The notes below the pieces were generated by a model that saw only the letters and a list, made by a program, of their open reading frames with translations, was not told the DNA's origin and made no database searches. A stretch of DNA of 11,159 nt, from the IMG/VR virus record IMGVR_UViG_2541047866_000002; one strand, written 5' to 3'. Shown one piece after another: positions 329-5,244 of the stretch. Position numbers and translations under genes: made by a program. Source of the stretch: a virus (Duplodnaviria; Heunggongvirae; Uroviricota; Caudoviricetes). Numbering within the stretch: the first letter of the stretch is position 1; each line of letters begins with the position of its first letter.

Positions 329-400
329 GTTGGTTTTTCTCCACGGATTTACCGACAACCGAAGCCCTGACTGTTCCAGCAGTTGGGGCTTCACTGTTTT
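329..400 (+). ncRNA. Candidate sar-like antisense RNA covering the ant ribosome-binding region
   Basis: Extended -10 element TGcTATACT at 314-322 on the plus strand (inside the ant 5' end, antisense). A stem-loop at 361-392 (gaagccc...gggcttc, 7-bp stem with an internal ctg/cag sub-stem) is followed by a T-rich tract at 393-410. Predicted transcript is about 70 nt, antisense to the ant leader. P22 encodes a small sar RNA in the equivalent position. Confidence 0.3.
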
Positions 401-560
401 GATTTCTTTGCCGCATCAAGCATCACTTCTGAAAACGTGCGCTTGCCACTGAATACTCTTTCTCTTCTCAATTTTTCGTTCGTGCCAAATGATTCGCCAT
501 GAACAAAATTTGGTCTTAAAATGGTAATCGCAATCTCTTTGACTACTGCATCCAAGCGAA

Positions 561-713
561 TCACACCGTTACCCCCTCTCTCTTCAGGCTGTCTATCAGG
601 CGCTTGATAACCTCTGAGTTAAACGACCTGCACTCTTCCTTTGCCCTGCTACCGATAGCATCCTTTAACGACTGCGGCATCCTTACCAAAATCTTACTTA
701 TTTCTTTCTCCAT
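561..713 (-). CDS. arc: Arc-like ribbon-helix-helix repressor (50 aa)
   Basis: ATG at 713-711 preceded by GGAGG with a 5-nt spacer. The product MEKEISKILVRMPQSLKDAIGSRAKEECRSFNSEVIKRLIDSLKREGVTV resembles P22 Arc (...ENGRSVNSEIYQRVMESFKKEG...). It is divergent from an Mnt-like gene. The TTG at 749 is rejected as start. Confidence 0.8.
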   Translation of the reverse strand: MEKEISKILVRMPQSLKDAIGSRAKEECRSFNSEVIKRLIDSLKREGVTV

Positions 714-827
714 GTTACCCTCCACGCAAACAACTCTTTTCGAATACAAAAGATAGCAAAGTGAGTATATCTAGTCAAAATTTTTTTGCATACACTTTGC
801 TATCAAATTGAATACCAAAGGTGTTAT
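714..827. promoter_or_regulatory. Divergent arc / mnt promoter-operator region with a perfect 12-bp inverted repeat
   Basis: gatagcaaagtg at 752-763 and its exact reverse complement cactttgctatc at 793-804, 29 bp apart. On the minus strand -35 TTGACT (plus 773-778), a 17-bp spacer and -10 TATCTT (plus 750-755) lie upstream of arc, with one repeat copy in the spacer and overlapping the -10. On the plus strand a TTGCAT -35-like hexamer (786-791) sits just 5' of the other copy; the plus-strand -10 is unclear. Confidence 0.55.
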
Positions 828-1076
828 ATGGCAAAGGGTGTGTCAATTTCTCCAACTACGGTAAGAATCCCTGAATCTTTACGCGAGGCTCTTGCTGTCA
901 GAGCATCAAAAAATGGTCGCTCTGTTAACTCCGAGATCGTCATGATTTTGCAAGCCGCGATTGATGAAGATAGGTCGCCAAAGTCAGTTGAGTCATTTGC
1001 TCAGCAAGAAGCTGATAAATTCAAAGAGGCGCTACTTGAGACGCTAAAGACCATGTATGCTAAGGATGAAAAATAA
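828..1076 (+). CDS. mnt: Mnt-like ribbon-helix-helix repressor (82 aa)
   Basis: ATG at 828. The product MAKGVSISPTTVRIPESLREALAVRASKNGRSVNSEIVMILQAA...KFKEALLETLKTMYAKDEK resembles P22 Mnt along its length (GRSMNSELLQIVQDAL ... KKMVFDTLKDLYKK). It is divergent from arc as in immI. The stop TAA at 1074-1076 overlaps the next ATG (TAATG). Confidence 0.8.
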   Translation: MAKGVSISPTTVRIPESLREALAVRASKNGRSVNSEIVMILQAAIDEDRSPKSVESFAQQEADKFKEALLETLKTMYAKDEK

Positions 1077-1612
1077 TGCTGCACACAATTCATTTCTTAT
1101 GCCCTGTTAACACTGCCACTGTTGGGCAACTTCAGAACCACTGTCTCACCGCATTATCTCAAGGCGCAACTGAATTAAATATCCATATATCAAGTCAGGG
1201 AGGGGAAACTGCTGCTGGCTTTACTGCGTATAACTTTCTTAAGTCACTCCCTGTTACCGTTAGAACTCACAACATAAGCAATGTTGAATCCATAGCTAAT
1301 ATCGTTTTCCTGGCTGGCTCAGAACGTTTCGCAAACCCATTATCAAGATTCCTGTTACATCCTCTATTATGGTGCTTTGCCTCCCCAGCCGCCGACCATG
1401 CCAGATTGAGAGAGTACGGGAAATGCCTCGATAACGATCTTGATCGCTTCGTTGAGACGTTCAATATCGACATCGGAACCCATATTAGGTGGGCATCCCT
1501 GATAGCAGACTCGACCATTTTGGATGCTAACAAGGCTCTTGAGCATGGCATAATTAATTCCATAAAAACTGCAAGGCTGGCATCCAATCAGGCAAACTGG
1601 TGGGTTGTTTGA
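1076..1612 (+). CDS. ClpP-fold (S14-like) serine peptidase, short stand-alone form (178 aa)
   Basis: Start overlaps the mnt stop (TAATG). ISSQGGETAAGFTAYNFL aligns by eye to ClpP INSPGGVITAGMSIYDTM; NVESIANIVFLAGSERFANPLSRFLLHPL to [32 protein letters not shown]; the C-terminal ILDANKALEHGIINSI to FLSAPEAVEYGLVDSI. Candidate Ser (ESIA), His (LLHP) and Asp (IADSTILD) residues are present. Family assignment is from memory, not a search. Confidence 0.6.
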   Translation: MLHTIHFLCPVNTATVGQLQNHCLTALSQGATELNIHISSQGGETAAGFTAYNFLKSLPVTVRTHNISNVESIANIVFLAGSERFANPLSRFLLHPLLWCFASPAADHARLREYGKCLDNDLDRFVETFNIDIGTHIRWASLIADSTILDANKALEHGIINSIKTARLASNQANWWVV

Positions 1613-2118: not shown

Positions 2119-2685
2119 TCAGTGGAAGTTACCAGAGTGAAACACACGAGTCCCGTGCTCAGCAAGCGCACGCAAACCAGCCATATCTACGGAACTATCA
2201 AAAACAACCGGAACACATGAGCGTTGTTTAATAAGACTATTCAGGTTGGTTACGGCAGATCTGGCATCAGCAACAACGATATAGATATCTCTTGCGATCT
2301 CTTTAAAATCAGCAGAAGCTTCTTTGAATACCGATTTCATTGCCCCTTCAAGTCCTCTCAATTGATGCTCTATCAATCGAGACTTTTCTGGTTCAATGAT
2401 AGACAACACATTGTCTACATTCTCATCGGTAGCGTTTGCAAGAACACGATAAGCGTATTTCAGCATTCGAGACAATTCTTTAATCGAAGACACCGCCTCA
2501 TGAAGCTCATCATTAGCCCGTTCACTGCTGAATGAGGATTGATGGTAAGCGTGCTGAACGTTATCAGTAACAACCACCTCACAACTGAACGCAGAAGCTT
2601 GCTGTAATAGCAAACCTATTGCGACTCCAGCTTTGGCAGCGTTCAAGCTAAACATTTCATCAATCCCATTAGTCTCATTGCTCAT
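2119..2685 (-). CDS. Hypothetical protein (188 aa), upstream partner of the YafO-like gene (antitoxin position)
   Basis: ATG at 2685-2683 preceded by AAGGAGG with a 5-nt spacer. Its stop TGA at 2121-2119 lies 8 nt before the YafO-like start. No motif I recognise (no obvious RHH/HTH). The longer ORF start at 2715 is rejected because it lacks an RBS. Confidence 0.6.
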   Translation of the reverse strand: MSNETNGIDEMFSLNAAKAGVAIGLLLQQASAFSCEVVVTDNVQHAYHQSSFSSERANDELHEAVSSIKELSRMLKYAYRVLANATDENVDNVLSIIEPEKSRLIEHQLRGLEGAMKSVFKEASADFKEIARDIYIVVADARSAVTNLNSLIKQRSCVPVVFDSSVDMAGLRALAEHGTRVFHSGNFH

Positions 2686-2860
2686 ACAAACCTCCTTCTT
2701 ATCGGAGATTATCAATAGCTATGCATCCATTGAATACACGCTATGCGCAATAAGTTTACGTCACGTGATATCATTATGCAACCACCGTTCTATCACCGAC
2801 TAACTTTACTCCCACTCCTATACATCATCTGGTATCCTGCGCAAAACTAAGGAGGTTGGT
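2686..2860. promoter_or_regulatory. Divergent intergenic region between the 188-aa gene and the membrane-protein gene, with candidate promoter and palindrome
   Basis: On the minus strand TTGCAT (plus 2776-2781), a 17-nt spacer and TAAACT form a plausible sigma70-like promoter for the cassette. The spacer contains the 8-bp palindrome TCACGTGA (2761-2768). Promoter for the plus-strand gene not confidently placed. Confidence 0.35.
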
Positions 2861-3211
2861 GTGAATGCTCAGTCTGTCATCATGGTTTTCCTTGGGCTGA
2901 TTGTCGCAAAACTATATCCAGACTGGTGGAAAGGGGCATTAGCTACTGTCGCCATCTATTTGCTTTTATCCATCGTTAAGCGATCACTCGCTGAGACCGT
3001 AAATCAAGCAAAACGTTTCTCATTTAAGAGTTTAATAAACTATGTTACTGGGCTTATTTTTTGCCTTTCAATTCTGATCGCTTCGGCTTTTTTGCCCGTA
3101 TCAATAGCTAATTTTTTTGGCGCACCATATGAGGTAGGTTATCTATTCTCTGTTTCCTGTCTTGCCATTGCTCTTCTTTACCTGTGGACGAGATCAAAGA
3201 ATAAAAATTAG
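2861..3211 (+). CDS. Small integral membrane protein with 4 predicted TM helices (116 aa), in the position and orientation of P22 sieA
   Basis: GTG at 2861 with GGAGG at 2851-2855 (5-nt spacer). Four hydrophobic stretches (VIMVFLGLIVAKLY, ALATVAIYLLLSIV, LIFCLSILIASAFLPVSIANFFG, YLFSVSCLAIALLYLW). Convergent with gene 16 and AT-rich. Confidence 0.6.
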   Translation: MNAQSVIMVFLGLIVAKLYPDWWKGALATVAIYLLLSIVKRSLAETVNQAKRFSFKSLINYVTGLIFCLSILIASAFLPVSIANFFGAPYEVGYLFSVSCLAIALLYLWTRSKNKN

Positions 3212-3223
3212 CCATCCGTGGCT
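3196..3223 (-). terminator. Short hairpin plus U-tract at the 3' end of the late operon (after gene 16)
   Basis: agcca-tccg-tggct at 3210-3223 (5-bp stem), followed on the minus strand by AATTTTTATTCTTT. The stem is short, so strength is uncertain. Confidence 0.35.
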
Positions 3224-3228
3224 GCCAG

Positions 3229-5244
3229 TTATTGAGCTTCTTTTTGTGATGCCTGTGCGACTCTGGTGAGCGATTGTGTGACCGTACTGATCGCTCTGTC
3301 ATATGCTGTGCTACCTTTTGGCGTATTTGCCAGACGTAACAAGGCATTTCGTATAACAGGGCTTTCGTATGCCTTCGCAGCTCCTCCTACGACACCAGCA
3401 GCAGGAACAACAAACGCAGCCGTTTTTAGCATCCCCGCTAATACTGCTGCGTTTATGATGCCACCACCAACTAACAATCCATAAAGCTGCTGACCATTTA
3501 AGTTTTGAACGTTCGCTTTTGCCGCGTGTCTTGTATCGTTGAGGTATTTAATAACGCCGTCCAGTTCCTTTCCATGTACGCCTTTAAAGAAAGTTGCTGA
3601 TTGCTTCCTGTTCCGGTGTAACGCATTAATAAACTTTTCAACACTAATATTTCCAGACGGATCAGTCGCCTTATCTACAGCATTCTGAACTATGGCTGCT
3701 CGTGCGTTTTGCCTACCATTGTCATCCAGAAGCCTGTAAAGCTGAGAACGTTCTGATGGGTTTTGGCTAAAAACGAGTTTTGTTACATCCTCAGGTGTAG
3801 CCTTGCCGCTGGCTATTGCCTTTTGAACGCGCGTTCTTCCCATCATGTCATTGAATCTAGCCCATGAGCGATCAACCCTAGACATATTGGCAGCTTCTTC
3901 TGAGCCTAGTTTTTGGGATACTGCTTTTTTCATATCCGCTGTATATGCCTTGTAGACAATATCGCTGGCTTTCTGGAGCGTGTCTTTATCAACAGTCTCG
4001 TTTGAATTCATGAACCGCTTTCGAAGGTCAGTTCTGTTTTCTCTCGCCAGACGCAGGTCATTGGGTCCGCTGGTGATATCGTCTTTAAATTGCTGCAAGA
4101 CTTTTACCGCGGCTCTATCCTGAGATTTGCCCGGGCGGCTTAACACGGCAATCTGATTGTCGATAGCTTTTACCGTGTTTGAGAGATCGACAGGGGTATC
4201 CCCCATAGCGTCAATTATGCGGTTATATCGCTTTCCTGCTGCCTCAATGAATTTTTGTTGCCCTTTAGTCGCAGATTCATAAAGCTGTTTATCAGAAATG
4301 CCACCCAGACCATCGCTAAATGTTCTGACTAAATTTTCTCGTGCTTGTTGTTGATTCAGCCGATTCTTACCGGTTCCAAAAAAAGGAACTCTTTCGCCTA
4401 ATGTCTGAGCCTGACTCTGCATAAAGGTTTTATCTTTCAGCGTGTCACTGGTCATTAACGGCAGGTTTCTTTCCGACGCAAAATCGACAGCAGCCTTTGC
4501 TTCCGGTGACATCTCACCGCGAACAGCCCTGGAAACCGCACTAACTGTATTTTCCAGCCCCTTGCCAACACCACCAATGCCAGCAGAAATTACCGTTTGT
4601 GCAGGATCAATATCTTCTCCGCCAGCAAGGCTGGTGCCACCCTGTAGTGCTAAATCTGTAGCAGCTGATTTCCCTATGGCACCAAGCACCGTTCCAGCCC
4701 TGCCCGCTGGTGTGAACGCTAACGCATTAGCAAGAAACGAAGTCAGGTCTTGCGGTGATAAACCTGGCTTGTTCAGGGCATAATCACCGGATGGCAGGGA
4801 AACGATAGTGTTACCCTTCTCATCCTGCCTTAATTTCGCCCCCATACTCTGAAGAATCTTTTCCTGAGACGCGTCGGAGCCGAAAAGTTGAGACCATCCA
4901 GCCTTCAGGGCATCCATGCTTAGTGAGTTCAACTCAGGGGCAGCCCCAACATTTTGCAGTCTCTCCATTTCTGGTGTCATTCGGCTTTCACCGGTAACGG
5001 CATCGCGCATTGCAGCACCTAAAACAGCCCCTTGCTCAGCAGAGCGATCTAGTCCTTCCTTCTGCTGAGTGGCAAGCTGTGCATATCCTGATGCAAGTGA
5101 GTTGTCTGCTGGCGATTGCTGAACACCTTGTTGTGTTGGCGCTGACTGACCAGCAAAATACTCATCAATGGCGGACCCAATATCTTCCGTGCTCGTACCA
5201 TCAGGAAAGGTAAATGTCTTACCATTTGCAGTTACTTTCATCAT
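3229..5244 (-). CDS. Ejection (injection) protein, P22 gene 16-like
   Basis: 671-codon ORF, third of three consecutive genes after a gp7-like gene as in P22 (7-20-16). Starts [16 protein letters not shown]... at tandem ATGs (5244 and 5241) that overlap the gene 20 stop (ATGATGA); the true start may be 5241. Gly/Ala-rich. Confidence 0.75.

Follow-up and report, generated by a model that had tools for sequence, protein, structure and literature searches.

HK97 gp15 and T4 Imm are small phage-encoded inner-membrane proteins that block the entry of a phage genome and leave adsorption unaffected. HK97 gp15 is covered by reference 8 of PMC10883804. For the trans-envelope ejection-protein conduit of P22-like phages, SieA is, to our knowledge, the sole characterised blocker. 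SieA is the superinfection-exclusion protein of P22, occurs in types A, B, and C, and is represented by the Pfam family PF26849 (Leavitt et al. 2024, PMC10883804). It is a tested blocker of DNA injection, and sieA needs no more than 85 bp of DNA upstream to exclude 10^7-fold (PMC10883804). The gene was found in 22 of 66 P22-like phages, and Leavitt et al. singled out a conserved cytoplasmic C-terminal motif of its products, FxRYPxEAxxFNK (PMC10883804). The P22 changes that enable escape from SieA, G532W and P546S, fall in the C-terminal hydrophobic, glycine-rich segment of gp16 (PMC10883804). Leavitt et al. had no explanation for the fact that SieA proteins, which differ strongly from one another, act on gp16 and gp20 proteins that are also very different (PMC10883804).

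We analysed a stretch of 11,159 nucleotides (the window; IMG/VR record IMGVR_UViG_2541047866_000002), which belongs to a P22-like prophage located at tRNA-Arg/intS in E. coli S88, APEC O1, ATCC 11775, and similar strains (Table 1). With its acyltransferase and long tailspike, the prophage is similar to the K1 phage CUS-3 and to the 'APEC-1' prophage (PMC2629481). Between genes 16 and 9 lies the 'ant moron', a region described as in rapid flux (PMC2629481). Since the sar antisense RNA lies over the start of ant, the immI region is P22-like. Phages phiv205-1, EC.P3, and the PhiR12 series share the block composed of the Mnt/Arc-like and ClpP-like genes with 98-99% identity, and the pairing of an immI repressor with a ClpP-like protease is unusual. 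The YafO-family toxin gene (PF13957, E = 3e-22) is directly preceded by an ORF of 198 aa (phrog_8416), and the two may form a toxin-partner pair.

Table 1. Features of the window and of the 116-aa reading frame next to gene 16 (positions are those of the window)
Feature	Position	Strand	Description
sar antisense RNA	329-395	+	Rfam RF00262, 83.9 bits; overlaps ant start
57-aa ORF	391-564	-	between arc and ant
Mnt/Arc-like ribbon-helix-helix gene	786-1076	+	ClpP-like gene starts at its stop
ClpP-like serine protease gene	1076-1612	+	PF00574, E = 2e-11
YafO toxin gene and 198-aa ORF	1661-2110, 2119-2715	-	part of the ant moron; same direction as the late operon
5' socket	2825-2863	+	TCATCTGGTATCCTGCGCAAAACTAAGGAGGTTGGTGTG; 5'-UTR, Shine-Dalgarno, and GTG; ~39 nt including the start codon
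Extended -10-like element	2830-2838	+	TGGTATCCT; inside the socket; hand inspection, no -35
Shine-Dalgarno AAGGAGG	2849-2855	+	5 nt ahead of GTG; read directly from the sequence
ORF116	2861-3211	+	116 aa, GTG start; predicted 4-TM inner-membrane protein, uncharacterised family
Hydrophobic segment 1, aa 3-19	2867-2917	+	Kyte-Doolittle, family alignment; ends in invariant V-A-K-L-Y-P
Hydrophobic segment 2, aa 24-40	2930-2980	+	Kyte-Doolittle, family profile
Basic loop, aa 41-56	2981-3028	+	+3 to +6 K/R across the family; predicted cytoplasmic
Hydrophobic segment 3, aa 57-83	3029-3109	+	Kyte-Doolittle, family profile, AF2 model
Hydrophobic segment 4, aa 92-110	3134-3190	+	Kyte-Doolittle, family profile, AF2 model
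3' junction element	3210-3223	.	AGCCATCCGTGGCT; small hairpin overlapping the TAG stop, between convergent stops
gp16-family DNA ejection protein gene, 671 aa	3229-5244	-	phrog_770 'DNA transfer protein', E 1e-172; RefSeq

The subject of this study is ORF116, which a preliminary description of the window had picked out as a 116-aa reading frame with a good ribosome-binding site, convergent with gene 16 and situated in AT-rich DNA. The reading frame and its Shine-Dalgarno sequence are present as described, and the convergent neighbour, 17 bp away, matches phrog_770 and is named 'P22-gp16 family phage DNA ejection protein' in RefSeq. The GC content of ORF116 is 0.41, compared with ~0.45-0.54 in the late genes, so the DNA is AT-rich to a modest degree only. 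ORF116 represents a protein family that has yet to be characterised, at a location of a known kind. The reading that we favour, while giving it somewhat less than an even chance, is that ORF116 is a moron cassette encoding a prophage-expressed inner-membrane blocker of phage DNA entry, which would be an analogue of SieA and not its homologue.

The RefSeq/PGAP version of ORF116 in E. coli S88 (WP_011703616.1, 'hypothetical protein') has 109 aa and begins with the ATG at 2882. We prefer the upstream GTG, because the relatives of ORF116 all begin with MN(A/G/Y)Q at the equivalent place in the alignment, each preceded by its own Shine-Dalgarno sequence, and because the longer N-terminus is needed to complete the first hydrophobic segment. 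At that same aligned position, four relatives with ~38% identity have an ATG start codon. A search of 5.8 billion proteins provided 19 clusters of ORF116, all at least 71% identical and all annotated as 'hypothetical', from E. coli, Edwardsiella, Yersinia, and Salmonella. When 1.84 billion representatives were searched exhaustively with a profile, seven were retrieved, all from the ORF116 family, including four new distant members of 115-120 aa. No significant family match was found in Pfam, PHROGs, NCBIfam, or PADLOC; the Pfam copy used is without PF26849 and leaves P22 SieA itself unmatched, which makes the Pfam result uninformative on SieA. The tblastn search of 50,697 phage records with ORF116 gave a single chance match (E = 8), and hence no phage encoding it. 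ORF116 was also absent from a scan of genome representatives, a collection with one genome per species, in which a sporadic gene is easily missed.

Among 5,426 complete E. coli genomes, 229 (~4%) contain ORF116, and its location is always chromosomal. Two alleles occur in E. coli: one with ~100% DNA identity to the window in 61 genomes, and one with ~93% identity in 167. The ~93% allele is part of a chromosomal island, for example at positions 7001-14351 of E. coli 83972 (L006), where it is next to vat. The island encodes a TOPRIM/DUF927 primase, a PerC-type regulator, decayed P22-type gp7 and gp20, and a gp16 pseudogene, and a similar arrangement is found in Edwardsiella (L005). This island is possibly a prophage in decay, or else a satellite-like element with ejection-protein genes. 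In the O111:H8 locus (L007), ORF116 is intact and gp16 is deleted directly after the ORF116 stop. The preservation of ORF116 where gp16 is decayed or deleted is as expected of a gene that benefits the host.

ORF116 is a real gene under purifying selection. The comparison of the E. coli and Yersinia alleles gives a dN/dS of 0.12-0.14 at a dS of ~1.3, and in the relatives with ~38% identity, synonymous sites are saturated, yet these relatives keep the length of the reading frame, the place of its start, and the hydrophobic pattern. ORF116 could in principle be a functionless leftover, or a chance reading frame persisting through its physical linkage to gp16, as the truncated or frameshifted members among its database relatives (P0013-P0019) might indicate. 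The low dN/dS, the features kept at 38% identity, and the intact copies beside decayed gp16 speak against such a remnant, which is largely refuted by the selection analysis, and we assign it a very small probability.

The preliminary description of ORF116 as a membrane protein with four hydrophobic segments agrees with its hydropathy, charge distribution, and conservation. The four segments identified according to Kyte-Doolittle are conserved in the family-averaged profile and form a 2 + 2 helix pattern. Segments 1 and 2 are short, about 15-17 aa. In the family, the loop between segments 2 and 3 is basic, the C-terminus has a charge of +1 to +3, and the turns formed by residues 20-25 and 84-92 are acidic or neutral. 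On the basis of the positive-inside rule, this charge distribution predicts four transmembrane helices with both ends in the cytoplasm, including the short R/K-rich tail after segment 4. Two models calculated with AlphaFold2 each contain four helices, with low confidence (pLDDT 58 and 64). The invariant residues of the family include V15, K17, L18, Y19, and P20 in the first turn, and F53, Y61, G64, L65, F67, P79, L108, and R111. The predicted location of ORF116 is the inner membrane.

As a small protein with several membrane segments, ORF116 might also damage the membrane, as a holin-like effector or an abortive-infection toxin that would depolarise the cell when triggered instead of blocking entry passively. 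Sub-threshold matches to holins (PF07332, E = 0.065; LydA-type fold, E = 0.5 or worse) and the YafO-family toxin gene located 750 bp away in the window could be taken as hints of such an activity. However, all the holin matches are far below significance: PF07332 (Holin-X) scores 13.7 bits against a cut-off of 28.4, and the Foldseek E-values are 0.47 or higher. In the BFVD database, Foldseek found no match to the low-confidence model of ORF116 below E = 0.2. The strong ribosome-binding site, the apparently constitutive arrangement, and the intact copies in 229 genomes argue against toxicity; moreover, the YafO gene is missing from other ORF116 contexts, and ORF116 is located outside the lysis region, the lysis genes of P22-like genomes being elsewhere. 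We consider the effector function improbable.

The immunity proteins of pore-forming colicins are inner-membrane proteins with three to four transmembrane helices and a length of about 100-180 aa. The resemblance of ORF116 to them is limited to general size and topology. Searches of Pfam and NCBIfam with the limit relaxed to E <= 10 brought up no colicin-immunity or other immunity family, and there is no bacteriocin gene near ORF116 in any of its contexts, in which the constant partner is gp16. It is therefore most unlikely that ORF116 confers immunity against a pore-forming colicin or another bacteriocin.

The boundaries of ORF116 link it to SieA by position. In P22, the gene beside 16 on the opposite strand is sieA, as was stated in the preliminary description and as the P22 annotation confirms. 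The 21-mer AAAACTAAGGAGGTTGGTGTG ends in the start codon of ORF116 and also in the annotated GTG of P22 sieA. A block of ~39 nt, from TCATCTGGTATCCTG to CAAAACTAAGGAGGTTGGTGTG, is near-identical in an alignment of the sequences before ORF116, P22 sieA, and four unrelated genes, in which no similarity was found upstream of the block or in the coding part. The P22 copy of the block is located at ~3266-3304(-) of L001. The block looks like a socket shared for expression and recombination, and we refer to it by this name.

On the 3' side, P22 has GCCGTCCTTGGCT just beyond the sieA stop (L001 ~2757-2770), which is similar to AGCCATCCGTGGCT in the window. This element is kept from P22 to the prophage studied here despite a gp16 identity of only ~30%, and it is retained in the relatives of ORF116, with compensatory changes in two distant ones. 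When read on the minus strand, the hairpin is followed by a T-run, which gives the gp16 transcript a weak terminator-like site; the stability of the RNA fold is unremarkable (z = -0.79). The element marks the exact 3' boundary of the cassette. The sieA position proposed for ORF116 in the preliminary description was thus borne out and could be made exact, because both the ~39-nt 5' junction, including the GTG, and the 3' element are the same.

The most telling evidence comes from loci in which one gene stands in for the other. In three viral contigs (L041, L042, and L046), the C-terminus of gp16 is 99% identical to that encoded in the window, and the place of ORF116 is taken by a 204-aa SieA-family gene with the sequence RYPGEA. 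The 3' region of gp16 is 97.5% identical between the window and the SieA-carrying loci, and in L041 the DNA homology to the window resumes exactly at position 3210. The SieA-family gene starts at the same ...GGTTGGTGTG, and its 5' flank is that of the second ORF116 allele. Since both junctions are exact beside a near-identical gp16, ORF116 and the sieA-family genes are allelic cassettes.

In contrast to the shared position, the proteins are not detectably related. The comparison with SieA, which the preliminary description had left as a check, gave no significant similarity: the BLASTP E-values of ORF116 are 0.29 against P22 SieA and 7.3 against the experimentally active type B SieA of HS1, and hhalign of the ORF116 family against a profile of SieA types A and B returned a probability of 1%. 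As a control, SieA types A and B detect each other at E = 8e-25. The RYP.EA motif was detected in 10 of 10 SieA sequences, as well as in the SieA-family protein of L041, but in none of 10 ORF116-family sequences, which have an invariant motif of their own, VAKLYP, at the first turn. ORF116 is also 46-96 aa shorter than SieA (116 versus 162-212 aa). The BLASTP and hhalign results, the missing motif, and the length rule out ORF116 as a homologue of SieA. A stretch of the pattern (K/R)FS..N.IT..GLI, which both BLASTP and hhalign aligned with SieA, is not significant (P = 0.056 for one comparison) and is given no weight here.

The likeness of ORF116 to the 4-TM SieA is one of general layout only, in which two helices are followed by a cytoplasmic loop and two more helices, as predicted for ORF116. 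The cytoplasmic loop between the helix pairs has ~45 aa in SieA, which also has a C-terminal tail, whereas the loop of ORF116 has ~16 aa and a tail of the SieA kind is absent. SieA proteins have three to four inner-membrane helices; in ORF116, we observed four hydrophobic segments, charges compatible with the positive-inside rule, and four helices in low-confidence AlphaFold2 models. Like sieA, ORF116 belongs to a P22-like prophage, where it is placed between the gene 16 and gene 9 homologues and is convergent with the former. ORF116 is furthermore similar to SieA in outpacing the adjacent gp16 in divergence, with 38% identity versus 62-70% for gp16, compared with 28% versus 75% for SieA types A and B. 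HK97 gp15 and T4 Imm are examples of the kind of protein that is proposed for ORF116, but they differ from it in topology (one or two transmembrane helices), phage lineage, and target, and no sequence similarity of ORF116 to proteins of this type was found in Pfam and PHROGs.

The relatives of ORF116 are closely linked to gp16. They are positioned 17-24 nt from a convergent gp16 in 17 of 17 IMG/VR loci, in Yersinia and Edwardsiella, and in the relatives with 38% identity; the one exception among the relatives examined is a deletion remnant. The gp16 proteins beside them, where there was enough flanking sequence, are of one type, with members 62-77% identical to each other. The phages with SieA types A and B, P22 and HS1, have gp16 proteins of another type, 75% identical to each other and ~30% to that of the window. 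In the C-terminal segment of the window's gp16, which is 9 aa longer than that of P22, G532 is conserved and P546 is not. The only sequenced phages with a gp16 of the window type are N7 and HZ41 (70% identity), and both carry an ORF14-type protein in the slot. The N7 ORF14 (L013, 5016-5336(-)) is an unrelated 106-aa protein with one N-terminal transmembrane helix and a soluble domain.

A strict coupling of ORF116 to one type of gp16 was considered and rejected, since gp16 of the window type can occur together with SieA. It is also contradicted by locus L107 (IMG/VR 2563366800_000009), where an ORF116-like protein is encoded beside a P22-type gp16. This protein of 118 aa has the N-terminus of ORF116 (MNGQTIIIILLSLIVAKLYP) and a divergent remainder, and is either a chimera or a very divergent member of the ORF116 family.

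The position next to gp16 houses many other proteins. We surveyed 80 IMG/VR loci with gp16, and with few exceptions the gene that comes next downstream is small, convergent, and 8-24 nt away. The occupants belong to the ORF116 and SieA families or are HkcB-like and N7-ORF14-like proteins with one transmembrane helix, a 62-aa protein with two, signal-peptide proteins, and a lipoprotein; in some of the loci, the slot is empty and the tailspike is directly next. A 33-mer of the socket has at least 119 exact copies in IMG/VR (loci L112-L230), ahead of at least 12 unrelated protein families, and 11 of 12 socket-launched families have a transmembrane segment or a signal peptide among the IMG/VR matches listed. 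ORF116 has both properties of a socket cassette, as its start codon is the GTG of ...GGTATCCTGnnCAAAACTAAGGAGGTTGGTGTG and its end lies next to the stop of gp16. According to blastn, the socket occurs in 69 sequenced phages, ahead of sieA, hkcB of HK620, gene 14 of epsilon34, and others; the count was taken from blastn because megablast with a 42-mer and a 28-nt word misses most copies. HkcB and epsilon34 gp14 resemble ORF116 in that they start at the same socket GTG, are convergent with a gp16 homologue, and are small and membrane-anchored. However, they are unrelated to it in sequence, and instead of four transmembrane helices they have one at the N-terminus followed by a coiled-coil soluble domain. 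Our literature search retrieved no paper that describes the socket or its alternative occupants, and Leavitt et al. note only the frequency of sieA. Several of the socket families are not directly beside gp16. In one viral contig (L179), there are two copies of the socket (2340-2372 and 4105-4137), 1.7 kb apart, which indicates that tandem cassettes exist.

Because the slot houses unrelated proteins such as HkcB, occupancy alone is weak evidence of an exclusion function. ORF116 could be a lysogenic-conversion protein of the envelope with a job other than blocking the DNA entry of P22-like phages, such as excluding other types of phages by way of another inner-membrane target, altering a host transporter, or providing an envelope-stress or colonisation trait. 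The slot would then be a general expression site for envelope morons and would not be specific to exclusion. It is hard to see how the at least 12 unrelated socket families, which include secreted proteins, lipoproteins, and single-TM coiled-coil proteins, could all target the gp16 conduit; in addition, ORF116 is without the SieA motif and is kept inside decayed islands of extraintestinal pathogenic and commensal strains. Against the conversion role stand the linkage to gp16, which is tight down to 38% identity, the exact replacement by SieA-family genes beside the same gp16, and the fact that no domain hints at another activity. We regard this explanation as a credible minority possibility.

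The function in superinfection exclusion is favoured because ORF116 has the junctions of sieA and replaces a SieA-family gene exactly, because the gp16 linkage holds at 38% identity, and because 11 of the 12 socket families are of the envelope type and the one that was tested, SieA, blocks injection. It is weakened by the lack of SieA similarity, of the SieA motif, and of any PADLOC or family match. That ORF116 would block the DNA entry of related phages, as the preliminary description had proposed, is inferred from the position of the gene. On this view, ORF116 would be a moron cassette that can be exchanged for others and that fills the sieA slot of a P22-like prophage. The protein would be made in the lysogen and inserted into the inner membrane by four helices, its two ends facing the cytoplasm and two short turns the periplasm, and it would stop incoming phage DNA from crossing the inner membrane. 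The most plausible route is that it disturbs the membrane end of the conduit formed by the ejection proteins gp16 and gp20, as SieA does; alternatively, its target may be a host membrane partner of this conduit. Both the exclusion activity and the target are putative.

The weakest link in assigning an exclusion function to ORF116 is expression. A scan for sigma-70 promoters upstream of ORF116 on the plus strand detected none. The curated P22 record puts the -35 and -10 boxes of the putative promoter PsieA between -61 and -31 relative to the GTG, and for the most part they fall outside the block shared with ORF116. Because of these two observations, we can only infer that ORF116 is expressed from the prophage.

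A more far-reaching interpretation is that the socket, located between gene 16 and the immI/tailspike region and bounded by the ~39-nt block and the hairpin beside the gp16 stop, is a dedicated site for at least a dozen swapped envelope cassettes and that ORF116 founds a new family of minimal 4-TM injection blockers. We consider it a minority possibility; if it is true, ORF116 would act on the membrane end of the gp16/gp20 conduit without the SieA sequence features thought to be important, and the whole socket would be a ready catalogue of new entry-exclusion proteins. The 33-mer of the socket provides a sequence handle for harvesting candidate exclusion and envelope-modifying proteins from prophages. 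ORF116 is present in extraintestinal K1 pathogens (S88 and APEC O1), which makes it relevant to the choice of therapy phages. As a protein that is unrelated to SieA, has about half its size, and occupies the identical slot, ORF116 offers a natural comparison for how different SieA proteins act. If ORF116 excludes the same phages, what it has in common with SieA would point to the membrane helices and short periplasmic turns as the features that matter, and not to the RYPxEA tail.
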